Source of the DNA: Escherichia phage vB_EcoM_WFC
Length of the DNA stretch: 64,000 bases
Direction: 5' to 3' (one strand)
Sequence record: NC_048195.1
Notes under the pieces: generated by a model
What the model was told of the DNA's origin: nothing
Seen by the model: only the letters and a program-made list of their open reading frames with translations
The model's database searches: none
Program-made: the position numbers and the translations under genes
In this document: positions 1-64,000 of the stretch, one piece after another
Layout of the letters: each line of letters opens with the position of its first letter
Position numbering within the stretch: the stretch's first letter is position 1

Positions 1-34
1 GCTAGACGTTTCAACTTCCAACTGCACCATCGAT

Positions 35-286
35 TCACAGTTCATCTCCAGATTGCAAAATAAGACCCGCATAGAGGATTGCCAAAGCCAAAGGTGCACC
101 ACCACCAGCCTCTCTATTCTCTTTGATTTGAAGAGTATCCTTAAGGAATTGCAACTGAACGTTGAATTCATTTTCAATTCCAAGAACTCCAGCCAATTCT
201 TTTACAGAATCTGCATATGCCTTGTCTAGCAATTCTTTTGGTACTGTTAAAGTCAATTCATTTGCCATTTTCTTTCCACTCCACAA
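35..286 (-). CDS. hypothetical protein (83 aa)
   Basis: Minus-strand ORF at window start, co-directional with two neighbours; no recognisable motif. Confidence 0.3.
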   Translation of the reverse strand: MWSGKKMANELTLTVPKELLDKAYADSVKELAGVLGIENEFNVQLQFLKDTLQIKENREAGGGAPLALAILYAGLILQSGDEL

Positions 287-479
287 ATGTGCTGCCGCTT
301 GTTTCTCTATTTAGCAGGTATCTGCCGCGCATTCCATGAAGGCTGAATTCAACCGTCGATGGATTAGATTTTGAAAGCCATATAGGTTGTCCGTCGAATG
401 GACCGCCTATGCATGTGTATTTAGCTTTTGGCTCACTCCTTTTGGGCCGTTTTGCCCGCTCTTTGATTGATAGTCTCAT
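258..479 (-). CDS. hypothetical protein (73 aa)
   Basis: Minus-strand ORF; its stop region overlaps the next ORF by 29 nt, so the true start may be internal. Confidence 0.3.
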   Translation of the reverse strand: MRLSIKERAKRPKRSEPKAKYTCIGGPFDGQPIWLSKSNPSTVEFSLHGMRGRYLLNRETSGSTFVEWKENGK

Positions 480-694
480 CAGTCTTCACCTTGAGATTCC
501 AGACAAGTAAGGACAAGCCACGTCATCGGAAGAATCAAAACCAGAGAAATGAGGGACCAGATAGACCAGCACAAGATGACAGACTTGAATGTGTGAACGT
601 CGCCAAACGCAGCAGTAAAACAGAATCCCATCACAAATGCAATAGCGGTGGAATGGTTGTCTATGGCTTTTATGGCACGGTCGATGAGTTTCAT
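479..694 (-). CDS. small membrane protein, two predicted TM helices (holin-like topology)
   Basis: 71 aa with two hydrophobic stretches (AIAFVMGFCFTAAFG and ILCWSIWSLISLVLILPMTWLVL). Confidence 0.4.
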   Translation of the reverse strand: MKLIDRAIKAIDNHSTAIAFVMGFCFTAAFGDVHTFKSVILCWSIWSLISLVLILPMTWLVLTCLESQGED

Positions 695-768
695 ATTACC
701 TCCGGTTTTGAGTTAATATGATTATAACGCAGAGTCTCAGAAAGGCAAACTTTTTGTGAATTTTAATC

Positions 769-795
769 AAAAAAATGGCCAGAAAAAATCTGGCC
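769..795 (-). terminator. putative intrinsic terminator on the minus strand
   Basis: Inverted repeat GGCCAG/CTGGCC (777-782 / 790-795) with a 7-nt loop; the A-run at 769-775 is a U-run on the minus-strand transcript. Confidence 0.35.
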
Positions 796-841
796 GAAAG
801 ATCACCCTTTATCCACTACTAAGCTGGAATCATAATTTTAC

Positions 842-871
842 TTGATATAGCTTGTACAAGCAAACTATAAT
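842..871 (+). promoter_or_regulatory. sigma70-like promoter candidate upstream of the large terminase gene
   Basis: TTGATA (842-847), 18-nt spacer, TATAAT (866-871); the -10 abuts the ATG at 872, implying a leaderless start or a downstream start codon. Confidence 0.3.
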
Positions 872-2332
872 ATGAATAAAATATTAACACATAATTGGAA
901 ATTCATGTACCAGTTGAATCCTGCTTTAAAAGAAGTCTGGAAGACAAAAGCGCGATACAAAGTAATATACGGCGGTCGTGCATCTTCCAAATCGCATGAT
1001 GCCGCTGGTTTTGCTATTTATTTGGCGGCAAACTTCAAATTAAAATTCCTTTGCGTTCGACAATTCCAGAACAAGATTTCTGAATCTGTATATACTCTAT
1101 TAAAAGATAAAATAGAGATTTCTGATTTTAAAGATGAGTTCAATTTATTAAAGAACTCTATCGAGCATAAAAGAACTAAATCTGAATTTCTATTTTACGG
1201 TATCGCACGTAACGTTGATGAAATTAAATCAACGGAAGGTGTTGATGTTCTTTGGCTGGAAGAAGCGCACGCACTTACTGAAGAACAGTGGGACATTATT
1301 GAGCCGACAATCCGTAAAGAAGGGTCAGAAATATGGATCATCTTTAACCCTGATGAAGAGGCCGATTTCGTCTACCAAAACTTTGTTATGCGACCGCCGA
1401 AGAATGCCATAGTTAAAAAGATAAACTGGCAAGACAACCCATTCTTGTCGCAAACAATGCTGGATGTTATCGCAGGCATGTACGAGCGCGACCCGAAAAA
1501 GGCAGAGCACGTTTATGGCGGCGTGCCGAAGACTGGCGGCGATAAATCTGTAATCAACCGTGCATTCGTTAAGGCCGCTCTTAATCTCCACAAACACCCT
1601 ACGCTGGGCTGGAGTTTGTCAGGGTCTAACCGTATAGGCTTTGACGTAGCGGACGATGGCGACGACCTTAACGCCACTGCATTCGTCACAGGAAACGTAT
1701 TGCGCGGCATCAAGACGTGGGAAGGTCTGGAAGATGAATTGTTGAAATCGGCAAGCGGAGTTTGGAAAGATGCGCTTACATTTGGCGCTTCTATAACTTA
1801 TGACGCCATCGGTGTCGGCGCTTTTGCTGGTTCAAAATTTGATGAACTAAACGAGTATGCAATACATGAAAATCCATCATTTCCAAGAATCGAATTTAAT
1901 GCGTTCAACGCGCAAGGGTCTGTTGATGATCCTGATGACGTTTTTCTTGAGCTACCACACGTTGAAATACTCAATAAAGACCATTTCGCAAACATAAAAG
2001 CGCAAAAGTGGACTGAAATTGCAGAGAGATTCAGAAAGACATACGAATATGCAACTGGGCAAGCCGTATATCCGACTGATGAATTGATTTCAATCGACAC
2101 CGATGGTATACCGGAACTTGGGATTCCAGCTTGGACTACTGAAGAGATTGAGACGTTTCTTTTTGAGATGTCAGCGCCGCGCAAAGATACGTCTGTTCTT
2201 GGCAAGTTCAAAGTTGAATCTAAAAAGGATATGGCAAAGCGTGGAGTCAAATCACCTAACAAAGCGGACGCAGCAATCATGGCATTGATGAAACCAATCG
2301 TTGCAGCATCCGGCTTCTTCTCTAACCTTTAA
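872..2332 (+). CDS. terminase large subunit
   Basis: 486 aa; N-terminal Walker A-like GGRASSKS about 35 residues in, followed by a nuclease-like C-terminal half; first gene of the structural block. Start could instead be the ATG at 905. Confidence 0.9.
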   Translation: MNKILTHNWKFMYQLNPALKEVWKTKARYKVIYGGRASSKSHDAAGFAIYLAANFKLKFLCVRQFQNKISESVYTLLKDKIEISDFKDEFNLLKNSIEHKRTKSEFLFYGIARNVDEIKSTEGVDVLWLEEAHALTEEQWDIIEPTIRKEGSEIWIIFNPDEEADFVYQNFVMRPPKNAIVKKINWQDNPFLSQTMLDVIAGMYERDPKKAEHVYGGVPKTGGDKSVINRAFVKAALNLHKHPTLGWSLSGSNRIGFDVADDGDDLNATAFVTGNVLRGIKTWEGLEDELLKSASGVWKDALTFGASITYDAIGVGAFAGSKFDELNEYAIHENPSFPRIEFNAFNAQGSVDDPDDVFLELPHVEILNKDHFANIKAQKWTEIAERFRKTYEYATGQAVYPTDELISIDTDGIPELGIPAWTTEEIETFLFEMSAPRKDTSVLGKFKVESKKDMAKRGVKSPNKADAAIMALMKPIVAASGFFSNL

Positions 2333-2335
2333 CAA

Positions 2336-2575
2336 TTAAAGCATTCCGTGCTGAAGGTCTAGTTTTCTTGCAGCAAATGACCTGGCACGGAATCGCTTAC
2401 CCGCTCTTACTGCCTGCCGAATCTTCTTTTGCATACACTTACGGTCAAAATCGTTGCGGTCAACGGCTTCGAGCAAATCCCGACGCAAAGCACCTAGTGT
2501 CGCCTTTTCGGATAATTCTACGCCCAGCGCGGCTGCAACGTCTTTCAAAACATCGAGTTCGGTTAACGTTCTCAT
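2336..2575 (-). CDS. small basic protein with N-terminal helix-extension-helix (Rho_N/SAP-like) motif
   Basis: 79 aa; LTELDVLKDVAAALGVEL pattern then Arg/Lys-rich tail; second gene of a two-gene minus-strand unit inside the + strand structural block. Confidence 0.4.
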   Translation of the reverse strand: MRTLTELDVLKDVAAALGVELSEKATLGALRRDLLEAVDRNDFDRKCMQKKIRQAVRAGKRFRARSFAARKLDLQHGML

Positions 2576-2988
2576 TTGATGATCCCCTTGATGTCTGATT
2601 CTGCCATAAAGATTGGAGTGCCGCCGCCAGGAACAATCGAGCGCGTTACTTTGTCGAACATATCGTTCTCTTCAACTTGAATACGATAAAATTTATTTTT
2701 GGATGAAGATGGGCACAATCCAATAAATTTACCAATGCCGCGAACGCATTCATCTTCAAAGTATACTGTTTCACCTTGAATGGATTCGATGTTTTCAACC
2801 GGATACACCTTGCGACCTAAAAGCCATTCATCCATGGTCGCCTGCAACACGTTTCGCGCATCCAAAATCCAAGGGTCAACTGTGGCACCTTCATATCGCG
2901 CAGCAGTGGCTTTTGCCAGCTCTTCATATTCGCATACGTTTACTACTTCGCCTTGATGAAGGACGACAAATACAATTGTTGTGCTCAT
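2572..2988 (-). CDS. hypothetical protein (138 aa)
   Basis: Overlaps the downstream ORF by 4 nt (operon-like); AT-rich promoter-like region at 2989-3117. Confidence 0.4.
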   Translation of the reverse strand: MSTTIVFVVLHQGEVVNVCEYEELAKATAARYEGATVDPWILDARNVLQATMDEWLLGRKVYPVENIESIQGETVYFEDECVRGIGKFIGLCPSSSKNKFYRIQVEENDMFDKVTRSIVPGGGTPIFMAESDIKGIIK

Positions 2989-3150
2989 TTCAATCTCCTT
3001 TCGTTTGGTTAACTAAAATATAACTCAAAATGATACAAAAGCAAAATATTTTATGAACTATTTATGATTACTATACATATCATTTGCTTACAAACACATG
3101 AATATTTATAATATAGATTGATTCCCTTTCACTGTCAGGTGGCGTTAACA

Positions 3151-5526
3151 ATGAAAATTCTTGGCATAAAACTCTGGGAGAAGACGCAACCAGAAGCCGA
3201 ACCAGCGGAGATGCCGCCAGGCGACCCATTGGCACCGTTTGAACGCCTGGAAAGGCGCGGCAGCGGTCAACGCTGGGATAAGACCGAAAGCAACCGCCCG
3301 ACCTTTAAAACCGTTGATGACTTTCCTTTATATGAGCCTGATATCAACGGGGACGGTGTTGCAATCATCAAAGGTCGCTCAGTAGATTCAGCAACCGTAT
3401 CCAAAAAAGTTATGGATAATGCTTTGAAGAACATCAGTTCAGAAGGGCAGGTTAATCCATACACAGTACCTATTCAGTTGCAAAACTGGTACTTATCGCA
3501 ATCATTTATCGGATATCAAGCTTGCGCCATCATCGCGCAGCACTGGCTGGTGAACAAGGCTTGTTCCATGGTAGGCCGCGATGCGGTCCGTAAAGGCTGG
3601 GAAGTCAAATCCAGTTCTGAGTCCGAATTATCAGTGCAGGCCAGCGAACGCCTAAAGCAAATTGATAAAGAATTTAATATCAAAGAGCACTTAGTTGAAG
3701 CCGAACGATTCAAAAATATTTTTGGTATCCGCGTCATCATATTTGATGTGCGTAGCGATGACCCAGAATACTACAGTAAACCTTTTAACATTGATGGTGT
3801 GACAAAGGGGTCTTATAAGGGGATCATTCAGGTTGACCCTTATTGGATGATGCCATTTCTGACGTCTGAAAACACCGCCGACCCTGCTTCACAGCACTTT
3901 TATGATCCAGAATACTGGGTGATCAGCGGACAACGTTATCATCGCAGCCACCTCATCATATTGCGCAACGATGAGCCAGCTGATATTCTTAAGCCGACTT
4001 ACATCTACGGCGGCATTCCTCTAACTCAGCAGATTTATGAACGCATCTATGCCGCTGAACGTACCGCTAACGAAGCACCATTGTTGGCGATGTCTAAACG
4101 TACAACGACACTACGGACCGACGTTGACAAGGCGATTGCCAATGAGCGGTCTTTTGCCGAACGCCTGATGATGTGGATTAAGTACCGCGACAACTATGCT
4201 GTTAAGGTACTTGGCCAAAAAGAAGAAATGGACCAGTTCGACATCAACTTGTCAGACTTCGACAGCATCATCATGAACCAGTACCAGCTGGTGGCCGCAA
4301 TCGCAAAAGTTCCGTCGACCAAACTGCTTGGGACTTCGCCAAAAGGCTTTAACGCCACTGGTGAATTTGAGATGGTCAGCTATCACGAAGAGTTGGAAAC
4401 GTGCCAGCAGCATGACCTGACAAAAATTCTCGACCGCCATTACAAAATCCTTCTCAAATCAGAAGGGGTGGAAGTCGACGTTAAGGTTGCATGGGAACCA
4501 GTTGGCTCACTTACTGCTACTCAACTTGCAGAAATCAACGACAAGCGAGCTAACACTGGCAAAACTCTCATTGATGCTGGCGTCATTTCTCCTGATGAAG
4601 AGCGCGACCGCATCAAAGACGACAAAAACAGCGGTTACAACCGTCTGCCGGAAGATGCAGCAGAAGAAACCCCAGGGATGTCTCCAGAGAATATGGCATT
4701 GCTTGGCAAGTCTGCTGGTGAAGTCCTGCAAGGTAAGGCTGATATTGAACAGGCAAAAGCTGATGTCGTTAAGATGGGCGGCCAGTTCTATAGCGAGACT
4801 GGTATTATGCCAGAAGGTGCCGCGCGTGGTGAGTTGGCGGAAAACCCTGACAGAGCACCTGTCGAAATTAACATGGACGATACCGATGATGAATCAAACC
4901 ATCAGGTTGATGTCCTAACGCAGTTGAAAGAAGGTCTGGAGGGTATTGCGGATTACTACCTGAAAGAAGGTCAGGATGTGGATTTTGACCCTCAAAAAGA
5001 TTCACGGTCGGTGCAGCCGTCTACCCTTCCAAGCGTCAAAGGTAATGTCGTAAACTTACGACACAACGTTGGCGAGATGGACGCAGCATCATTACCTAAG
5101 ATGAAGTTGCACGGAATGATTCTTGGGATTGAGAATCCTCGCAACAGCATCCGTAGAGGAAATAGCCTTGACGGTGAATGGGCAGTCAAGATGCCGCACC
5201 ACTACGGATTCATCAAAGGCACCAAGGGCGCGGACGGCGATGAAGTCGACTGCTTTGTTGGCACAAATCTGAAGTCGCCGAAGGTCTTTATCGTGAACCA
5301 AAACGATAACTACTCTGGCGAGTTCGATGAACACAAGTGCATGCTTGGATTCGATTCAGCAGAAGAAGCAAAAGAAGCTTATCAGGCATCATTTGGTAAC
5401 GGTTGGAACGGATTCGACTCAATCCACGAATTAGATGTGAACTCATTCAAAGAGTGGTTGAAGGGTGATTGCTCTCAAGCATACGGAGCACTCAATAATC
5501 CTACTAATTCACCGAAGCAAGGTTGA
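3151..5526 (+). CDS. portal protein with C-terminal inorganic-pyrophosphatase-like domain
   Basis: About 790 aa immediately after the terminase gene; ATG at 3151 is preceded by AGGTGG (the ORF track starts at TTG 3118). The final ~120 aa contain HYGFIKGTKGADGDEVDCFVG, which fits the family I pyrophosphatase signature D-[SGDN]-D-[PE]-[LIVMF]-D-[LIVMGAC]. Confidence 0.65.
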   Translation: MKILGIKLWEKTQPEAEPAEMPPGDPLAPFERLERRGSGQRWDKTESNRPTFKTVDDFPLYEPDINGDGVAIIKGRSVDSATVSKKVMDNALKNISSEGQVNPYTVPIQLQNWYLSQSFIGYQACAIIAQHWLVNKACSMVGRDAVRKGWEVKSSSESELSVQASERLKQIDKEFNIKEHLVEAERFKNIFGIRVIIFDVRSDDPEYYSKPFNIDGVTKGSYKGIIQVDPYWMMPFLTSENTADPASQHFYDPEYWVISGQRYHRSHLIILRNDEPADILKPTYIYGGIPLTQQIYERIYAAERTANEAPLLAMSKRTTTLRTDVDKAIANERSFAERLMMWIKYRDNYAVKVLGQKEEMDQFDINLSDFDSIIMNQYQLVAAIAKVPSTKLLGTSPKGFNATGEFEMVSYHEELETCQQHDLTKILDRHYKILLKSEGVEVDVKVAWEPVGSLTATQLAEINDKRANTGKTLIDAGVISPDEERDRIKDDKNSGYNRLPEDAAEETPGMSPENMALLGKSAGEVLQGKADIEQAKADVVKMGGQFYSETGIMPEGAARGELAENPDRAPVEINMDDTDDESNHQVDVLTQLKEGLEGIADYYLKEGQDVDFDPQKDSRSVQPSTLPSVKGNVVNLRHNVGEMDAASLPKMKLHGMILGIENPRNSIRRGNSLDGEWAVKMPHHYGFIKGTKGADGDEVDCFVGTNLKSPKVFIVNQNDNYSGEFDEHKCMLGFDSAEEAKEAYQASFGNGWNGFDSIHELDVNSFKEWLKGDCSQAYGALNNPTNSPKQG

Positions 5527-7870: not shown

Positions 7871-9289
7871 ATGCGAATGCAAACGGCACGCGAAATTGAC
7901 AAAAATGGATTCTTGACGATTATGGGTTGTCCAATTTCGTCATTTGGCATTTTTGATTATTCTGCTGGTCAAGTTGGTCTTGATGGTGATCCGAATCGCA
8001 TCGTAAAAGTCTATCGCCCTGAGTCAGCGGTGAAAGACCCCGAAGCGATAGATTCATTCAAAAATATCCCTTTCATCGACAATCACGAAATGCTTTCTGG
8101 ATTTGAAGGTGATGAGGATAACACAGCACCCGAAGAGTATGGAGTTGATGGCGTTCTGACTGGCAATGTTTATTATGACAAGCCATGGATGCGCGGCGAC
8201 CTTAAAGTGTTTAGCCGTCGTCTGAAGAAGGCCATTGATTCTGGAAAGGTTGACTTGTCTTTGGGCTATGACTGTGAATTCATCATACAGTCTGGAGAGT
8301 TTGACGGGCAGCCGTATGAAGTGGTGCAGACAACTCTTCGCGGCAACCACATTGCTCTCGTGGACGTTGGTCGAGTACCAGGTGCACGGGTGCTGGATGG
8401 TCGTTGCTTTGACCATCTTTGTTTGACGACTGTAACACCATCCAACGAGGATTTAGACATGCCAAAACCGTTAAAAGGTAAAGCGCGTGATAATGCTGTT
8501 GAACAGCTGAAATCACTGATCCCTGCGCTCGAACAATTTCTGAACGAAGAGAGTACTGAAGCTGCTCATCAGGATGAAGTTGAAGTGAAAGCAGAAGAGA
8601 AGGACTCAACCGAAAATCGTGAAGAAGTAATGGTTGATCCAGAAGTCAAGGCAGAAGCAGAAGAAACCCCAGAAGGTGAAGAGAAGTTTGAAGTTGAAAC
8701 TGAATCTCACGCTGGCGGCGAACTTCCGCAATTGATCAGCCAAATCGAAGCACTTATTGCAAAACTGAAAGGTGGCGCGGTAGGTGATGAAGAAGAAGTT
8801 GAAGCCGAAGTCAAAGACGAAGAAGTTGAAGTCAAGGCTGAAGATGTATCACCTTGCGACAAAGCTGAAGATGTGGTTAGCGGCCTGCAAAACAGCAACG
8901 TAAAGGGGGCTTCGGTCGAAAAAGATGACAAACCGACAAAAGCGGCGAAAGCGTCGCCAGGTCCAGCAAAAGGGGAACACTCAATGGCATCTGATTCAGC
9001 AGTTGCTGCTTTCTACGCTGATTCTGCTCGTAAGAATAGCCTCTACCAGCGCCTGTCTAAAGTTGTTGGTGCCTTTGATCATGCAACTATGGACTCCAAG
9101 TCCGTAGCGAAATATGGCGCTAAAAAGTTAGGCTTGAAGTGCGTTGATGGTGCTGAGTTTGACGTGGTGGATAATTATCTGCGCGGCGTTGAGCACGGTC
9201 AGAAACAGCGTGTAGTCGCAAAACAAAAGGCCGCTGCGGATTCTGCAGCAACTGACGAAGCATTTGAAGCTTGGTTGAAAGGGGAATAA
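7871..9289 (+). CDS. scaffolding-like protein (N-terminal domain plus acidic Glu/Lys-rich region)
   Basis: 472 aa; conserved-looking N-terminal 190 aa followed by long EVKAEE-type acidic low-complexity segment; sits between head morphogenesis and capsid genes. Confidence 0.55.
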   Translation: MRMQTAREIDKNGFLTIMGCPISSFGIFDYSAGQVGLDGDPNRIVKVYRPESAVKDPEAIDSFKNIPFIDNHEMLSGFEGDEDNTAPEEYGVDGVLTGNVYYDKPWMRGDLKVFSRRLKKAIDSGKVDLSLGYDCEFIIQSGEFDGQPYEVVQTTLRGNHIALVDVGRVPGARVLDGRCFDHLCLTTVTPSNEDLDMPKPLKGKARDNAVEQLKSLIPALEQFLNEESTEAAHQDEVEVKAEEKDSTENREEVMVDPEVKAEAEETPEGEEKFEVETESHAGGELPQLISQIEALIAKLKGGAVGDEEEVEAEVKDEEVEVKAEDVSPCDKAEDVVSGLQNSNVKGASVEKDDKPTKAAKASPGPAKGEHSMASDSAVAAFYADSARKNSLYQRLSKVVGAFDHATMDSKSVAKYGAKKLGLKCVDGAEFDVVDNYLRGVEHGQKQRVVAKQKAAADSAATDEAFEAWLKGE

Positions 9290-9291
9290 AC

Positions 9292-9909
9292 ATGACTTTC
9301 CAAACTAGTGTAGGCCGTCAATATACAACTGGCTTTCCTGGCGACATCGTTCGCGACGGCCCACAGCGTGGGAAGCCAGGCCGAATCGTTAGCGCCAACG
9401 ACGGTGCAAACGTAAACGCCATCAGCCGTGTGTTTGGTTTTAAAGCCGACGTATCATTAATGGGTACTGGCCAAACCAAAACCTTGGGCGCGCAGGACTT
9501 TGAAGTTGAACTGGGCGGCACCAATTACTATGGCATCCTTGGCAACAGCAAGCGTTACGCTCTGTATGGCAACTCTACTGGTCCTTTGGGTGCCAGCATG
9601 GTTCTGCCTCAATATAGCGAAGGCGAGTTCTATGATATGTGCACGGGCCTCGTAGTTGAAGTATTCAACCCAAGCACCAGTCCGCAGACGCTGAACTACG
9701 GCGACCTGCTCGCTTATGTACCTAAAGGCATTTCCAGCGGTAACAACCCGAACAACTTGCCTATCGGTGCAATTATCGCCTATACTGGCTCACTGCCAAC
9801 TGGCATGGTTGCCATTCCAGGCGGTATCGTGATTGACCCGACTGCTATTGCCCTTTCCGGCCCAAGCGTCCAGTCTTCCACTTATACCATTGTACAATTG
9901 ACTCGTTAA
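9292..9909 (+). CDS. structural protein (205 aa)
   Basis: ATG 9292 right after the scaffold stop; Gly/Pro-rich; lies between scaffold and capsid candidates. Confidence 0.5.
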   Translation: MTFQTSVGRQYTTGFPGDIVRDGPQRGKPGRIVSANDGANVNAISRVFGFKADVSLMGTGQTKTLGAQDFEVELGGTNYYGILGNSKRYALYGNSTGPLGASMVLPQYSEGEFYDMCTGLVVEVFNPSTSPQTLNYGDLLAYVPKGISSGNNPNNLPIGAIIAYTGSLPTGMVAIPGGIVIDPTAIALSGPSVQSSTYTIVQLTR

Positions 9910-9923
9910 TAGGCAGGTGAATA

Positions 9924-11063
9924 ATGACTCGCATTAGCCAAACACACTCTCGCCTCCCAGCGAGCAAGGTGCGCCCTTTTGATATGCAATCCGTTACTGA
10001 CGCGGCTGTTTCCCAGCTTGCTCGTATCGGTATTGTGTTTGATTCCGCGATTGTGCGTGATCAGATTGAGCACTTAAACCGTGCAGGCGCTTTCCGCGTA
10101 GGTGACGCCGCGTTTACTGCGCCGCAGACTACTCCGTCAATCCCGACCCCGTTGCAGTTCCTGCAGCAGTGGTTGCCTGGCTTCGTCAAAATCATGACCG
10201 CTGCTCGTAAAATCGACGAGCTGGTTGGTATTGATACCGTTGGTCAGTGGGAAGATGCAGAAATCGTTCAGGGCATCGTTGAACCAGCTGGCACCGCAGT
10301 TGAATATGGTGATTTCACCTCTATTCCTCTGGCAAGCTGGAACGTAAACTTTGAACGTCGTTCTATCGTTCGTGGCGAAATGGGCATGGCAGTTGGTATG
10401 CTGGAAGAAGGCCGCGCATCCGCTATGCGTCTGAACTCCGCAGAAACCAAGCGCCAGCAGGCTGCTGTATCTCTGGAAATCATGCGTAACGCAATCGGCT
10501 TCTATGGTTGGTACAACGGGAACAACCGCACATTCGGCTTCCTGAATGATCCAAACCTGCCAGCAGCGATGACTTCCAACACCACTTCCGGCTGGGCTAC
10601 TGCGACTTTCCAACAGGTAACTGCAGACATCCGTTTGATGGTTCGTCAAATTCGTGTGAACTCTCAGGACCAGATTGATCCAGAGAAAGTTGACATGACT
10701 CTGGCGCTGCCGACTAACTCTATCGATTGGCTGTCCAACACCACTGACTTCGGTATTTCTGTACGTGACTGGATCACCCAGACTTATCCGAAGATGAAGA
10801 TCAAATCTGCACCGGAACTCAACGGCGCACTTGGCAGTGACCCGACTTTCTTGAACGTGGCATACCTGTACGCCGATCACATCGATTCCTCAATCGATGG
10901 TTCAAGCGATGATGGTTCCGTATTCAGTCAGCTGGTTCAAACCAAGTTCATGACTCTGGGCGTTGAAAAGCGTGCTAAGAGCTACGTTGAAGACTACGCA
11001 AACGCAACAGCAGGCGTTCTGCTCAAGCGTCCGTTCGCAGTCGTCCGTATGACTGGTATTTAA
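9924..11063 (+). CDS. putative major capsid protein
   Basis: 379 aa; strong RBS AGGCAGGTGA; position after scaffold; followed by a stable hairpin. Family assignment is by gene order and memory, not a search. Confidence 0.6.
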
Positions 11064-59192: not shown

Positions 59193-59725
59193 TGGGTAAC
59201 GATGCAGGATGGGGCAAGCCGCGATACTCAAAACTTGCCCACTACTTTGACAACGGCGAGCAAATCAGCTTGTGCGGTAAATTCAACAAAGGCAATACAG
59301 AGTTGACCGATGCTCAAGAAATGGAATCAAGTTTTACAATTGGTGATTGCTCTAAGTGCAGAAAGGCATTATATGAGTTATTAACTCTAAGGGGATTGAA
59401 AGCGGCAAAATCAAGGGATGAATGGGTCATCAACGTCTGTGAAGGGAATCCAGAATTAATGGATGAATTGCTGAAAACAGATGCCGTTAATGCCATTTTT
59501 AAAAGGCATTATAAAACTTGTATGCGTTACAAGATGAATGATAATATTATTTTTATGGTATTATCTTATTCAAGGAGCACAATGGACGTCAAAAAGCTTC
59601 GACAATATCGTCACAAGGTAATGTGTGAATTGCGCCGTTTAGGAGTGACTGTTGATAATAATGTCATTAAAACGGAGTTAAAGAAGCGTGATAAAAGGAA
59701 TGGTGACTGGAAGGTCAGCAGATAA
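59192..59725 (+). CDS. hypothetical protein (177 aa)
   Basis: AAGGAGG RBS; last gene of the early array. Confidence 0.45.
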   Translation: MGNDAGWGKPRYSKLAHYFDNGEQISLCGKFNKGNTELTDAQEMESSFTIGDCSKCRKALYELLTLRGLKAAKSRDEWVINVCEGNPELMDELLKTDAVNAIFKRHYKTCMRYKMNDNIIFMVLSYSRSTMDVKKLRQYRHKVMCELRRLGVTVDNNVIKTELKKRDKRNGDWKVSR

Positions 59726-60017
59726 AGAACGTTGATTTGTGTGTTTTGAAGAATGGAATGTGTGCAATGGGTCGCTTTATGCGGCCTTTTGTTGTTTGGG
59801 TCGTGTTTTGCGATGGAATAATTATGAGGTTGTGTTTTATTTATTAATTGTGCGGAAATATTTAGAAATATATATAAACAGGATTGTTAATATTTTAATA
59901 GTGTATGGCTATTGGTCCGTGGTGTTCGTTAGATTCTATCTATGGATTGGATTTTCTTGGGTCGTGAAACGTGGTTTTGAACACATTTGATACGCCTAAA
60001 ATACGGTTAAAAATTAA

Positions 60018-60347
60018 GCGTATCATGGCTGCAGGCCGCGCCGTTCCTGGATTCCTATTTTCAAAAGTGGTACACCCTTACGTCATGATACGTCATGGTT
60101 TTCTATCCGTAAGAGTGTACAGCCCTTGCCGCGCCTGGCTTGTACATTAATCTTACGGATGATACGGATAAAACTGAGCATCGTTATATATAGAATTCGA
60201 AAAATTAATTAACTCCATTTTAAAAACATTTATATTAATTTTTTTCATATCCTCATACTTATGTTAATTTATATATTTAACGTATTATCCGTAAGATATA
60301 AGTAAAAACAAAGACTTGCGGCAATACGGATGATACGTCATGATACG
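60018..60347. repeat. iteron-like TACGGATGATACG repeats flanking an AT-rich core (region B)
   Basis: CGTCATGATACGTCATG (about 60080-60097), CTTACGGATGATACGGATA (60152-60170), ATCCGTAAG copies near 60104 and 60287, AATACGGATGATACGTCATGATACG (60323-60347); AT-rich core 60180-60280. Confidence 0.6.
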
Positions 60348-60512
60348 CTTCGACCAGCCAGCAGCGGCTAAGTCATTGATTTGCATAACAAGCGGCAAAA
60401 GGGATGGATTTCTTTTATACGTATCAAACAGTACACCACGCACCACGGTCCGCAATCCACGCAGCATTATGATTTGTGTACTTTTATAGCCATAATGAAC
60501 ATCAATCTGCAC

Positions 60513-60541
60513 TTGAATATAATGTCCATCCATTGTATAAT
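60513..60541 (+). promoter_or_regulatory. sigma70-like promoter upstream of the TerS-like gene
   Basis: TTGAAT (60513-60518), 17-nt spacer, TATAAT (60536-60541). Confidence 0.45.
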
Positions 60542-60561
60542 TCACACTATTAATTTGCACT

Positions 60562-61050
60562 ATGGGATTTTGCACTATGAGTCAAGATTATGTAGCGATG
60601 CCTGAAGACTTTGAAGACCCGCGATTCGCAGAGCACAATCAGGCTTTATTCGATGAGTTCATTGACCTTGTTATTCAGGGCCATGACATGCGCGCAGCTT
60701 TTGCACTAGTATTTGGAATGGAAGTTGCAACGGATAACTACACTGGCCAGCGAATCCTTTGCACGCAACGCAATCCATACTACAAGATGCGCTTCAAAAA
60801 GCGTATGGAAGAGATGCCACTCAAGGATTTGTGGAGCGTAAAAGGTGCAATTCACAATTTGGTCAAGCTTGTGCGTGATCCAGAAGTCGCGGCGTCAGCC
60901 AAGCTTAATGCTATTCGTGAACTGAATATCATCTACGGCATCACGATGATTGATGAAAACGGCAATAGTAAAATGGGCCGTTCCATGGACGATTTCTACA
61001 AGGATTTCGGAGAGGCGGCCAAAGAAGGCGAGCAATTTTCCCGCCACTAG
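60562..61050 (+). CDS. putative terminase small subunit (HTH-type)
   Basis: 162 aa; GHDMRAAFALVFGME ... QRILCTQRNPYYKMRFKKRMEE and later KLNAIRELNIIYGI resemble small-terminase patterns from memory; alternative ATG at 60577. Confidence 0.45.
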   Translation: MGFCTMSQDYVAMPEDFEDPRFAEHNQALFDEFIDLVIQGHDMRAAFALVFGMEVATDNYTGQRILCTQRNPYYKMRFKKRMEEMPLKDLWSVKGAIHNLVKLVRDPEVAASAKLNAIRELNIIYGITMIDENGNSKMGRSMDDFYKDFGEAAKEGEQFSRH

Positions 61051-61052
61051 CC

Positions 61053-61448
61053 AATTTGCACTATAAAACGGCCCTAGAACACATTTTCTCCACTTCTAGG
61101 GCCATCGGTAATACGACGGGGAAGGTTGCAACCATAAACGCGTTAGAAAGTGTATTATTATAAGTCATCTTTTAGTCACTTTACGTAACAATTTACGACC
61201 TTCAACCGTCCAATCGAACGACTCCACCAGCAGATTCGCACTATAACCTAAGACGATGCGCCCTTTCTCGTTATCGACCCGCCAACAAGTCTCGAATAGC
61301 ATTCGATTTGCACTATTAACTATTGCCGCAACTCGCGTAGGATAAGCGCAATTTGCACTATGGTCGTAAAGGGATAAGGTGCGACCACTTCCGATGGACA
61401 ACGTAGCGATGAGAATAAGCGTATTCATAAGCCACCAATTTGCACTAT
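61053..61448 (+). repeat. array of same-orientation (A)ATTTGCACTAT motifs
   Basis: Copies at 61053-61064, 61233-61244 (TTCGCACTAT variant), 61305-61316, 61350-61361, 61437-61448; further copies at 60552-60563, 60569-60578, 61734-61745, 61748-61759, 62021-62032. Confidence 0.6.
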
Positions 61449-61478
61449 GAAAAGCGACCCCGAAGGGCCGCCATTCGA

Positions 61479-62105
61479 TTAGATAATCTGGAAGGTATAG
61501 GACTTGTTGCCGAACTCGAAGTTCAAGCGTCCAGCTTCTTTAAGCTTCATGCGGAAGCGAATGTGCTTGCTATCCGGTAAGCCCAGCGCGGCGAACGCTA
61601 CGCGGACCGATTTGAACTCGCCTACACCCTCGACCATAACGCCGTTACGGGTAAGACGCTTTTGCGCCACTTCCTTATTATCCCAACTTTTTGCAATGCC
61701 TTCGCTATTCGAACGGCGATGGGAAGGAGTTCCATTTTGCACTACGCAATTTGCACTATCGTTTAAACCGCTCTTAACGAAGGCTTCATACTCTTCGTCG
61801 GTCATCGCGTCGAGTTCTTCCTGCGTCGGCTCGGCCTTTTTAACGACCGCACGCGCCTTATGCGTTTTTACATCGCTGGACACTTCCTCGCGAGACTTCG
61901 CGTCGGGGATGGGCGATTCGTTGGACGGCTCATCGAGCGCGTTTAAGGACTCGATTAACGCTATTACGCGAGTCTCGGCGGTCCGGCGGTCCGCAAATTT
62001 TTTAATCGGCTTCGAACCGGAATTTGCATTATAAAATGCAACGAGGTCGGCGGTCTTAGTTGCGATAACGTCGCCGCTAGTCGAGAAACGATTTAAGCTA
62101 ACCAT
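61479..62105 (-). CDS. hypothetical protein (208 aa)
   Basis: Minus-strand ORF in the CpG-rich block; second gene of an operon driven from about 62570. Confidence 0.45.
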   Translation of the reverse strand: MVSLNRFSTSGDVIATKTADLVAFYNANSGSKPIKKFADRRTAETRVIALIESLNALDEPSNESPIPDAKSREEVSSDVKTHKARAVVKKAEPTQEELDAMTDEEYEAFVKSGLNDSANCVVQNGTPSHRRSNSEGIAKSWDNKEVAQKRLTRNGVMVEGVGEFKSVRVAFAALGLPDSKHIRFRMKLKEAGRLNFEFGNKSYTFQII

Positions 62106-62185
62106 AATGAACTCCTATTTGTTAGGGCGCTAGGCGCGAAAGAATTTTATTAAAGCGCCGCGCACGACGCTCTAAAAATCCTCTC

Positions 62186-62500
62186 TTACTCTTCGTCATC
62201 TTCGATTAATTCGAGGGCGAAGGCGTAAGCTTTGCTATCGTAATTAACTAAAACGGCGAGTTCGAACTCGTTAATAAACGCCGTTTTACCGCATAAATTT
62301 AATTCCGCATCGACTTCGAAGAATCCGTTTTCGTCGCGCTCTAAGCGAGAAGCAGCGAGTTGCTCGATTACCGTCGCGTCGTTAATTTCTTCGCCTAAGC
62401 GAACGCCGGAGAATTTCGCGAGAATTTCGCCGTAAGTAAGCGTAACGCCCTGGACTTCGGCGGTTGCGTTTTCGAGGGTAAAGCGGGTAACGATAGCCAT
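62186..62500 (-). CDS. hypothetical acidic protein (104 aa)
   Basis: AGGAG RBS upstream on the minus strand; CpG-rich codon usage. Confidence 0.45.
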   Translation of the reverse strand: MAIVTRFTLENATAEVQGVTLTYGEILAKFSGVRLGEEINDATVIEQLAASRLERDENGFFEVDAELNLCGKTAFINEFELAVLVNYDSKAYAFALELIEDDEE

Positions 62501-62568
62501 AATAAACTCCTAGTTGGGAGAGGCGTTAACGACCTATTCGTTAACTCATCCCGTCCCGATATGAGTAC

Positions 62569-62596
62569 ATTATAATATAGTGTAGAAAAAAGTAAA
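62569..62596 (-). promoter_or_regulatory. sigma70-like promoter (family copy 1, minus strand)
   Basis: On the minus strand: AAAAAGTGC TTTACT, 16-nt spacer containing TACACT, TATAAT. Confidence 0.5.
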
Positions 62597-62640
62597 GCAC
62601 TTTTTCGATAAAAATGCGATAAATTATTTTATCTTTTTTC

Positions 62641-62668
62641 TTTACTTCTTCGTACACTCGCGTATACT
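62641..62668 (+). promoter_or_regulatory. sigma70-like promoter (family copy 2)
   Basis: TTTACT (62641-62646), 16-nt spacer TCTTCGTACACTCGCG, TATACT (62663-62668). Confidence 0.5.
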
Positions 62669-62724
62669 TGTTTATATCGAGACGGGCGATGGCCCTTTCT
62701 TCTACTAGCATCGGGAGCTTTATT

Positions 62725-63027
62725 ATGACTACTTTAATCTCTTCCATCCTTACTTACGACGAAGACCGCTTAACCGTTCGCTCTCTTATCGCCGCCGTTA
62801 ACGCGGAACTAGAATCTAGCGCCATTAAGGTCCGCGCGGTCGCCTTCATCGGCCTTTCCTTCGACGATATGAAGTATGCCGAACGTAGCGCCATCCGCTT
62901 CGCGAAGACCGACGACGAAGCCGTTACCCTTATCGAGACGGTTACGCCGCGCGGCGAAGCGTTAATTATCGTCGAGTATATCGACGTAGAAGGCGATAAA
63001 TCTTATAAACATTTTATCGCAGAATAA
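62725..63027 (+). CDS. hypothetical protein (100 aa)
   Basis: ATG 62725 preceded by GGGAG; the ORF-track TTG start at 62668 lies inside the promoter; CpG-rich. Confidence 0.45.
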   Translation: MTTLISSILTYDEDRLTVRSLIAAVNAELESSAIKVRAVAFIGLSFDDMKYAERSAIRFAKTDDEAVTLIETVTPRGEALIIVEYIDVEGDKSYKHFIAE

Positions 63028-63039
63028 CGAAAAAAGTGC

Positions 63040-63068
63040 TTTACTTCTTCGTACACTAAGACTATAAT
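63040..63068 (+). promoter_or_regulatory. sigma70-like promoter (family copy 3)
   Basis: AAAAAGTGC TTTACT (63040-63045), 17-nt spacer TCTTCGTACACTAAGAC, TATAAT (63063-63068). Confidence 0.5.
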
Positions 63069-63135
63069 GTTTTATATCGAGAGGGGATGAGGTAGCGAAT
63101 AGGTCGCTACCCTCCCGACTAACTAGGAGAATATT

Positions 63136-63426
63136 ATGATTACTTTAGCCGCTATCCGTTCCGCTCGCGTCGAAACTTCCGAAAACTCTAACGTATTTGG
63201 CGAAAAACTTAAAAACGTTTATCTTTTTAACGTAGATGCGACTATCGAGGAGCTTCATAGTCCTATCGATTTTAGCGAATTTACGGAACTCGAAGAGGAA
63301 GATATTTCTACCTTCCGCGTTACTATCGAAGGCAAGGTTTATTTTGCTACGGAGTTCGGCGGCGAATATCTCGCGGTATCCGAAGGCGAAGGCCGTTACT
63401 CTTTCTTTAAAATCGTTTCCTTATAA
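63136..63426 (+). CDS. hypothetical acidic protein (96 aa)
   Basis: AGGAG RBS; CpG-rich; followed by a terminator. Confidence 0.45.
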   Translation: MITLAAIRSARVETSENSNVFGEKLKNVYLFNVDATIEELHSPIDFSEFTELEEEDISTFRVTIEGKVYFATEFGGEYLAVSEGEGRYSFFKIVSL

Positions 63427-63446
63427 TACCCATCCGTTACTAATAG

Positions 63447-63470
63447 GCCGCGCTTAGTCGCGGCTTTTCT
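63447..63470 (+). terminator. intrinsic terminator
   Basis: GCCGCG CTTAGT CGCGGC hairpin followed by TTTTCTT. Confidence 0.6.
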
Positions 63471-63592
63471 TCGTCCCTATCTCGATGCGCTTCTCCGCGA
63501 AAACTCCTTTATCCTTCCCTTCGTCGTCGCATAATCTTCGTCGAGATGCGCCTTAGTTCGCATAACAGGTATTACGTTAAATGGAGAACATC

Positions 63593-63668
63593 GCGTAAGT
63601 CGTTGTTTTATATAGACACCTATATCGGACCGTTAGCGAGGGTCGCGTAAGTCGTTGTTTTATAAAGG
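63593..63668. repeat. direct repeat ATCGCGTAAGTCGTTGTTTTATA (2 copies)
   Basis: Two copies about 53 nt apart in a ~550-nt stretch with no convincing ORF; further short direct repeats (AATCATTAGCYTTCGAAT) near 63789-63854. Confidence 0.4.
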
Positions 63669-64000
63669 CGCAAAACTTTCCCTTCGTTCCGAACTAAAAC
63701 GAGGAATATGCCGACCCTTCGCCCGAAAATAGTACGCATGCGATATTACCGACATCTAGAATAATCCCTCCCGATATTATTACGCGCTCAATCATTAGCT
63801 TTCGAATCATTATGCTGCATACTATTATGCGCCAAATCATTAGCCTTCGAATTGTAACGCTGGAAACTGTAACGTCGATTGATTATTGCGTTCGTGTGGT
63901 TTTTAGGACATGGGTCTTTTGGTGCGTTTTGCTACTTGATGGAATTTGCAGTACACTAATCAAAATACGACACATTTGGTCCACTAACTTTTCAAAGAAA

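Follow-up and report, generated by a model that had tools for sequence, protein, structure and literature searches.

Escherichia phage vB_EcoM_WFC belongs to Wifcevirus, a genus of E. coli and Shigella myophages with genomes of 66-72 kb. We analyzed a stretch of 64,000 nucleotides of its genome (NC_048195.1; hereafter the window), at the end of which an earlier note, made from the sequence alone, had flagged positions 63480-64000 as repeat-rich and non-coding. The elements of this flagged stretch, and the direct terminal repeat (DTR) whose end falls inside it, are as follows.

60217-63919, + strand: DTR of 3703 bp; a single copy in the window, duplicated at both virion DNA ends
63445-63466, + strand: intrinsic terminator closing the last + strand DTR gene (63136-63426); 8-bp stem with 6 G-C pairs, and a T tail
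63591-63612, + strand: first copy of a 22-nt direct repeat, TCGCGTAAGTCGTTGTTTTATA; kept in 16/16 genomes
63643-63664, + strand: second copy of TCGCGTAAGTCGTTGTTTTATA, 52 nt (about 5 helical turns) after the first
63774-63878, + strand: seven in-phase 15-nt units with the core AATCATTA / TGTAACG; units 1-6 make up a 45-nt tandem duplication
63875-63919, + strand: DTR side of the cut-proximal block, TCGATTGATTATTGCGTTCGTGTGGTTTTTAGGACATGGGTCTTT; virion DNA is predicted to end on the right at its last base
63920-63978, + strand: unique side of the cut-proximal block, beginning TGGTGCGTTTTGCTACTTGATGGAATTTGCAGTACACTAATC; the first bases beyond the DTR
63941-63960, + strand: GRAATTTGCRGTACACT motif close outside the DTR, the first of a pair whose other member lies about 95 nt onward, beyond the window

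An untranscribed, non-coding gap

The terminator at 63445-63466, which is invariant in 16 genomes and annotated as a terminator in the related phages Mansfield and WFH, forms the left edge of an untranscribed gap. The opposing - strand terminator of the next operon was found in phage Bas99 at a place equivalent to ~64080-64096 of the window, and the flagged stretch sits between these two convergent terminators. Promoter-like sites occur upstream, at 62569-62668 and 63040-63068, bearing out the earlier description of the stretch as following an early-promoter block and a terminator, and the stretch itself contains just two weak promoter-like matches (9/12). The arrangement TTTACT-N5-GTACACT-N5-TATAAT is common to the strong early-type promoters in the DTR, at 62579-62596 (- strand), 62641-62658 (+ strand) and 63040-63057 (+ strand); it occurs in the DTR only, with three close matches compared with 0.97 two-mismatch matches expected in the whole window. 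The sequence GTACACTAA is present exactly twice in the window, once in an early-promoter spacer (63051) and once just beyond the DTR end (63951). Adjoining the - strand operon terminator, just past the equivalent of the window end, Mansfield carries a tandem heptamer, CGACCCA (~3860-3905), in about 6 copies, compared with 1-2 in other Wifceviruses.

The stretch had also been described as having no convincing open reading frame (ORF), and this held. Variable sites in its small ORFs were distributed over the three codon positions as, for example, 5/2/4, 4/6/4 and 13/11/6, without the third-position excess of control genes (neighboring genes gave 31/24/53 and 55/50/77), and these ORFs were broken in 1-13 of 15 relatives. 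A longer ORF spanning the window boundary, which would have marked the region as coding, was looked for as well; the sole ORF that crosses the window end encodes 65 amino acids, is intact in 8/15 relatives with its start codon lost in Bas100, and has no coding-type substitution pattern. Several records carry annotated ORFs of 31-42 amino acids here (e.g. coding sequence (CDS) 008 of Mansfield, four CDSs in kaset, and SP13_010), in line with a micro-protein gene or, as the note had suggested, a small RNA. Such a gene is nevertheless highly improbable given the substitution patterns and broken frames just described, the absence of any Rfam match to the stretch at E<=1, an empty tRNA scan, RNA folding no better than that of shuffled sequences on either strand (z=+1.3 and +1.2), and the combination of flanking convergent terminators with promoter matches that are weak at best.

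The stretch contains the right end of the terminal repeat

Both DTR copies are present in the records of the relatives WFH, SP13 and Ro157lw (3701, 3899 and 3533 bp, respectively, with 0 mismatches between copies), and a PhageTerm-predicted DTR is annotated at 1..3673 of the Mansfield record. The Mansfield DTR has been published (PMC6753283), and Korf et al. gave a DTR of ~3.7 kb for WFC and WFH (PMC6563267). The DTRs of WFH, SP13, Ro157lw and Mansfield all start with ATTTT directly after AACTCC, and end with GGGTCTTT directly before TGGTGCG. Both boundary sequences are found in the window, which places the DTR at 60217..63919 and the right virion end at the junction of 63919 and 63920, within the flagged stretch; the window holds one DTR copy, as do most permuted assemblies.

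The flagged stretch is the untranscribed, non-coding, inner end of the 3.7-kb Wifcevirus DTR, that is, the end distal to the small terminase (TerS) gene, and from the four related records the right physical end of virion DNA is predicted between 63919 and 63920. The earlier suggestion of a nearby genome terminus with a terminal repeat was thus correct, as the mapped DTR ends inside the stretch, while the alternative of a cos- or pac-adjacent region was not, as this is a long-DTR end and neither kind of site. A cos site, with cohesive ends and no terminal redundancy, was ruled out by the 3.5-3.9-kb terminal redundancy of the relatives, and a pac site, with permuted headful ends, by boundaries that are fixed and identical in four records.

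Some relatives carry an extra gene of 70 amino acids between the last DTR gene and the equivalent of the flagged stretch (ECML-117 478-687, F13 478-687, SP13 3191-3400, Ro157lw 2825-3034), labeled 'transcriptional regulator' in F13 and in the ECML-117 RefSeq record, which the window does not have. Its presence or absence accounts for the differences in DTR length (3533-3899 bp).

Repeats leading up to the end

From left to right, the stretch contains the 22-nt pair, the seven 15-nt units, a G/T-rich block ending at the terminus, and then TGGTGCG followed by two GTACACT motifs. All of the repeats listed earlier were present where they had been placed. The pair reported as a 23-nt direct repeat in two copies is real, but its first base differs (A versus G) between the copies, leaving an exact length of 22 nt; it widens to 25 nt at 96% identity, with the copies spaced 52 nt apart. 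TCGCGTAAGTCGTTGTTTTATA occurs exactly twice in the 64 kb and nowhere else even at <=3 mismatches, with 0 copies expected (100 shuffles), and both copies are retained in all 16 genomes. On the - strand the first copy reads AAACAACGACTTA, one mismatch from the IHF consensus.

AATCATTAGCYTTCGAAT has two copies, at 63790 and 63835, compared with 0.14 expected, and both are part of a 45-nt tandem duplication (63774-63818 and 63819-63863, 78% identical); TATTAYGCGC and TGTAACGY lie inside or adjoin this tandem, and CTGTAACG by itself is not above chance. The underlying period is 15 nt, as found by TRF and by the lag-15 autocorrelation of the array (0.52 versus a null of 0.26, z=6.1), and the array stops about 40 nt short of the terminus. 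Bas100 is missing exactly 45 nt, or three 15-nt units.

The stretch is more conserved than its neighboring genes

Across the last 2 kb of the window we matched 27 Wifcevirus records at 89-98% identity, and the flagged 571 nt were complete in 27/27 of them (88-99%) and absent from the rest of the phage collection. Bas99 is 98.8% identical to the window over 63430-64000. Bas98 is 98% identical over 62000-64000 and 94.6% identical over 63430-64000, and such switches of identity pattern along the DTR indicate recombination inside the repeat.

With 15 genomes aligned, the ~700-nt non-coding gap had a nucleotide diversity (pi) of 0.047, compared with 0.134 and 0.122 in the flanking genes and 0.21 and 0.17 at their third codon positions, such that the gap between the convergent terminators is 2.5-4 times as conserved as the genes on its two sides. 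Diversity was lowest at the first 22-nt repeat, where the best-conserved 50-nt segment of the locus had a pi of 0.010, and at the terminus, with a pi of 0.011. The last 56 nt before the right end gave 0.017, and 63750-63790 was the most variable segment of the stretch. Purifying selection acts more strongly on the stretch than on the adjoining genes. Judged by this conservation, the 22-nt pair and the 15-nt array appear to be functional cis-elements, with some tolerance in array length.

A block across the cut recurs in other genera

To reach other genera we used TerS homologues at 30-41% identity. For Serratia phage MyoSmar (NC_048800), PhageTerm gives a DTR at 1..3559 with TerS inside. Read in the orientation of the window, its TerS-distal boundary has GGGCAAGGGC before the cut and TGGTGCGATTTCAC...ATGGATTGGCACGTACACTAA after it, and the Wifcevirus right boundary has GGGTCTTT before and TGGTGCGTTTTGC...ATGGAATTTGCAGTACACTAA after. 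When the 220-nt sequences outside the two boundaries were compared, the best local alignment began at offset 0 of each, with 29/41 positions identical, and control pairings gave nothing; the two independently predicted ends therefore coincide at the same homologous nucleotide, 5' of TGGTGCG. MyoSmar also has TTTCGT at -30 in common with the window and retains two 15-nt-spaced units, and it differs from the window in having only those two units, no ATTTGCACTAT array and a different DTR gene order. A link through TAAGTSGTT between the 22-nt repeat and a duplicated MyoSmar sequence, TAAGTGGTT, was considered and dropped, as the MyoSmar pair matches the 15-nt array in position and register. Pseudomonas phage PS44 was rejected as a further DTR example, its record end repeating an internal segment rather than forming a clean DTR.

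An nhmmer search with a boundary profile built from the Wifceviruses and MyoSmar, and not including Pantoea phage PA1 (Kylevirus, PP537389), found PA1 at E=1.1e-7. The match lies 3.1 kb downstream of TerS and on the same strand as that gene, in a ~680-nt non-coding gap with the genes around it in syntenic order. Apart from this, PA1 matched no record at the DNA level in the boundary region. Directly inward of the predicted PA1 boundary is an array with a 15-nt period (units AATGRTT, z=5.4), in register with that of the window, and TCGATT at -45 and TTCGTGTGGTT at -29 are the same in both phages. The PA1 right end is predicted directly 5' of TGCTCCAAATTGG, at ~46746 of PP537389. PA1 is thus like the window in its boundary block, 15-nt array, synteny and ATTTGCACTAT array. 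The two copies of GTACACT stand at the same place in MyoSmar and PA1 too, and TGGTGCGWTTT is unique in the 64-kb window.

By these alignments, a block of ~85-100 nt across the cut is homologous in Wifcevirus, MyoSmar and PA1, three genera with known or predicted DTRs of ~3.6-4 kb that contain TerS. A profile search of the complete Pbunavirus Ab27 genome did not find the block (best E 2-9), and Pbunavirus is reported to be a headful packager with permuted ends (PMC12390725). Scans of IMG/VR with TerS and the motif returned three close Wifceviruses only, together with one chance match within an ORF, and a metagenome scan returned five further Wifceviruses, one unrelated match and no new genera.

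These comparisons bear on two other explanations of the repeats. Were they functionless debris of slippage and duplication in a gene-poor junction, it would be expected that 45-nt units vary in number, with a single one in Bas100, and that a segment such as 63750-63790 is the most variable part of the stretch; the stretch is nonetheless 2.5-4 times more conserved than the neighboring genes, and its 15-nt periodicity and boundary block recur in PA1, which is otherwise without DNA similarity here, making this very improbable. A replication origin, with the 22-nt pair and the 15-nt array as iterons for an initiator, is in keeping with iteron-like direct repeats inside a conserved non-coding region, and is improbable on several counts. 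The stretch has no AT-rich unwinding element (GC 0.40-0.53) and the DTR no DnaA boxes, GC skew tracks the gene-strand blocks with no turn here, and the replication genes are far away. An origin would also leave unexplained why conservation is centered on the cut nucleotide, and the block is lost in the Pbunavirus genome tested although that genus shares the replication module.

The left end and other elements of the terminal repeat

Three further features lie toward the other end of the DTR.

60140-60307, no strand: left (TerS-proximal) DTR boundary, between 60216 and 60217, within a few bases of two dyads
60562-61050, + strand: TerS gene, 345 nt into the DTR from the left
60539-62032, + strand: array of 11 same-strand AATTTGCACTAT copies (0-2 mismatches), in the DTR only

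The TerS product matches the small terminase of Pseudomonas phage E217 (PDB 7uxe, E=6e-34), and a note in the Mansfield record agrees. At the left boundary, an inverted repeat has 27-nt arms at 60140-60166 and 60281-60307 that are 81% complementary and conserved in four aligned genomes, and an AT-rich palindrome occupies 60200-60243, where GC drops to 0.16. An analogous layout of inverted repeat and AT-rich sequence is present at the left side of PA1. Copies of TGGGTCG near both DTR ends were rejected as a shared boundary motif, being part of homologous terminator stems. About 65 nt before the left DTR end there is a mosaic junction, with roughly half of the Wifcevirus records losing homology to the window upstream of ~60150 (region 59700-60150).

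Every copy in the AATTTGCACTAT array is on the TerS strand, and the array extends from the ribosome-binding site of terS across two genes encoded on the opposite strand; the other 60 kb of the window hold three chance-level two-mismatch matches only. All Wifceviruses tested have the same number of copies at the same location and on the same strand, and PA1 has 11 copies at the same place (1871-2756) despite no other DNA similarity there; it was not found in MyoSmar. This array is a candidate terminase-recognition (pac-like) array, or a candidate array of sites for another protein. The E. coli Chi octamer GCTGGTGG occurs 7 times in the window (102, 4287, 26885, 35864, 47600, 48967 and 61224, one of them inside the DTR) compared with 1.1 expected, with 0/100 shuffles reaching 7, and near-copies of its complement are enriched in the DTRs of PA1 and MyoSmar.

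Near the left end, GCTAAGTCATTGATTTGC (60366-60383) contains a perfect IHF consensus on the - strand (60369-60381) and is a 68% relative of the 22-nt repeat; it is nearly identical to GCTAAGTTATTGATTTGC of PA1 (~1140-1158), near the TerS-proximal end. This site, almost the same in PA1, is one of the observations suggesting that the repeats might bind a regulator or an architectural protein such as IHF, which would organize or insulate early DTR transcription, or mediate DTR-DTR recombination or circularization once the DNA has entered, in place of any role in end cutting. The 22-nt copies, 52 nt apart, also face the same side of the helix, with each one mismatch from the IHF core after an A/T tract, and GTACACTAA is common to the early-promoter spacer and the motif just outside the boundary. 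Against these, IHF matches with <=1 mismatch are common, with 103 across the window (1.6 per kb); the stretch lies between convergent terminators and offers no strong promoter as a target of regulation; and the repeats are kept here in the absence of the extra 70-amino-acid 'regulator' gene of some relatives. We consider this explanation unlikely.

A candidate signal for the right genome end

We propose that the stretch is probably a cis-acting site that defines the right genome end during the processing of replicated concatemers. This reading follows from the position of the stretch at the DTR end, its non-coding nature, the strong constraint on it, and the conservation of the block and the array in genera with fixed DTR ends. 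In such a scheme, a terminase (the TerL nuclease, together with TerS or some other specificity factor), or else a nuclease associated with it, would recognize the conserved block and cut immediately 5' of TGGTGCG, with terminase the simplest candidate nuclease. The 15-nt array and the 22-nt pair would serve as protein-binding tracks on which a packaging or replication complex is assembled or halted. The single DTR copy at a concatemer junction would then be cut at a fixed nucleotide and duplicated.

Several observations weigh against an end-defining site of this kind. The boundary was mapped through relatives that are 92-99% identical rather than through reads of this phage, and the DTR boundaries of those relatives derive from PhageTerm or coverage analysis rather than from direct end sequencing. 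The evidence across genera comes from three genera, and in PA1, whose record is circular, the boundary is itself a prediction. The 22-nt repeat has no counterpart outside Wifcevirus, with none in either MyoSmar or PA1, and the number of 15-nt units varies (7 in the window, 4 in Bas100, ~12 in PA1 and 2 in MyoSmar), implying that the full array is not strictly required. The homologous TerS of E217 did not bind DNA appreciably in vitro, making it less likely that the repeats are read by TerS. Lastly, no motif common to both DTR boundaries was detected and a profile of the left boundary found no matches across genera, so that no single recognition rule for both cuts is evident.

A more specific version of the end-signal proposal, which we regard as possible but speculative, assigns distinct roles to the array and the block. 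The 15-nt units and the TTCGTGTGG...TGGTGCG block, cut immediately before TGGTGCG, may together be the packaging-termination and DTR-duplication signal of long-DTR myoviruses, with the array as a track for a ring protein. A ring-shaped protein, for example a decameric TerS, would contact the array unit by unit and stall an arriving motor or replisome, setting the cut ~41 nt downstream. Gain or loss of this module might then be what separates the fixed-end genera Wifcevirus, Myosmarvirus and Kylevirus from the Pbunaviruses, which have a homologous terminase and are reported to package by headful.

Comparison with known phage ends

The closest parallel in layout is Repeat Region 3 of phage T5, the region of its injection stop signal, at the inner end of its 10.1-kb left terminal repeat (LTR) (annotated by Wang et al. 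2005, AY587007; Davison, bioRxiv 10.1101/866236). The stretch resembles this region in layout and not in sequence. Both are untranslated, start at a terminator and straddle the inner boundary of the repeat (9194-10409 with the LTR end at 10139 in T5, and 63467 to ~64080 with the end at 63919 here), both contain a direct-repeat pair of ~22-23 nt and multiple 15-nt direct repeats, and in each case conservation exceeds that of the repeat's own genes, which include early genes. They differ in that T5 has DnaA boxes, large inverted repeats and palindromes, which are absent from this stretch, and in that the 15-nt repeats of T5 are dispersed at spacings of 26-330 nt while those of the window are strictly tandem. 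The phages themselves are unrelated, T5 being a siphovirus of the Demerecviridae and WFC a Lindbergviridae-type myovirus, and the T5 region is tied to a two-step injection that is not known for Wifcevirus. The 15-nt direct repeat D of T5 (9672-10409) occurs nine times, with copies to either side of the LTR end, and reads TGTCGGATTTGCACA on the other strand; it has an 8-mer, ATTTGCAC, in common with the array motif of Wifcevirus and PA1, a post hoc observation with a probability of ~0.05 after correction for comparisons. A common host factor could lie behind this 8-mer. The 9-mer is 1-2 mismatches from a DnaA box.

Taken at face value, the parallel would make the DTR end a control point of early DNA entry, either an injection stop or pause signal or an anchor for a membrane or host protein, with the early genes of the DTR expressed ahead of entry by the remaining genome, as has been proposed for T5. 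The matching order of elements (terminator, ~23-nt pair, multiple 15-nt repeats, repeat end and further repeats beyond), the stronger conservation of an untranslated region than of the genes of the repeat, and the strong sigma-70-type promoter class TTTACT-N5-GTACACT confined to the DTR would all suit such a role. We find it unlikely, as the stretch has no sequence homology to the T5 region (0 matches with nhmmer; only chance matches of 9-19 nt with blastn) and no large inverted repeat in 63470-64000, and the DnaA boxes at the core of Davison's model are absent (TTWTNCACA occurs 0 times in the DTR and 2 times in the whole window). Homologues of T5 A1 and A2 were not detected among the DTR proteins, which gave no Pfam match and only PHROGs of unknown function, and two-step injection is not reported for this group. 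Entry control would also leave unexplained both a block centered on the terminus and the absence of this block from the Pbunavirus genome tested.

Phages T7 and T3 offer a further comparison. Their DTR ends are precise and formed by site-specific cutting and duplication of a single DTR copy at the concatemer junction, with pacB and pacC sites and with the short-repeat arrays SRL and SRR beside a 160-bp terminal repeat. The arrays of T7 are built of 7-bp units in the unique DNA flanking the repeat, and processing is coupled to T7 RNA polymerase; no phage RNA polymerase was seen here, though no search was aimed at one. Comparison is by layout; the T7 repeat is 160 bp long with its 7-bp units outside, whereas that of the window is 3.7 kb long with its 15-nt units inside. 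In phage lambda, the cos site is organized as cosQ-cosN-cosB, with the IHF site I1, such that the cut site is flanked by accessory protein-binding elements; cosQ is read by the translocating terminase arriving from upstream, and other elements are bent by IHF. We take this arrangement as a working model of how the cut block would function with the 15-nt array and the 22-nt pair, although lambda has 12-nt cohesive ends, no terminal repeat and no sequence similarity to the stretch, and the resemblance of the 22-nt repeats to IHF sites is statistically weak.

Implications for end formation in long-DTR phages

The DTR of the genus had already been published, and its boundary signals are of a known kind, comparable to those of T5, T7 and, functionally, lambda cos, rather than a new kind of system. 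In the papers on this group that we read, we found neither the conserved cut-site block nor the 22-nt pair nor the tandem 15-nt array described, and no report that such elements are conserved in MyoSmar and PA1. For annotators, the boundary shows where to open Wifcevirus genomes, most records of which are arbitrarily permuted and several of which carry spurious small ORFs here, and for phage engineers it marks a region better left undisturbed.

To our knowledge, the precise cutting and duplication of ends in phages with kilobase-long DTRs are poorly understood, even in T5 and SPO1. The present analysis provides a short conserved candidate end signal, consisting of a cut-site block found in three genera and an adjacent 15-nt array, with a natural negative control in the complete genome of a member of the related genus Pbunavirus, reported to package by headful, from which the block is absent. 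Members of the Wifcevirus group can be grown on engineered E. coli K-12 (Bas98-101 of the BASEL collection), making direct testing by mutagenesis and terminus sequencing feasible, and end formation in long-DTR phages thereby becomes testable in an E. coli system.

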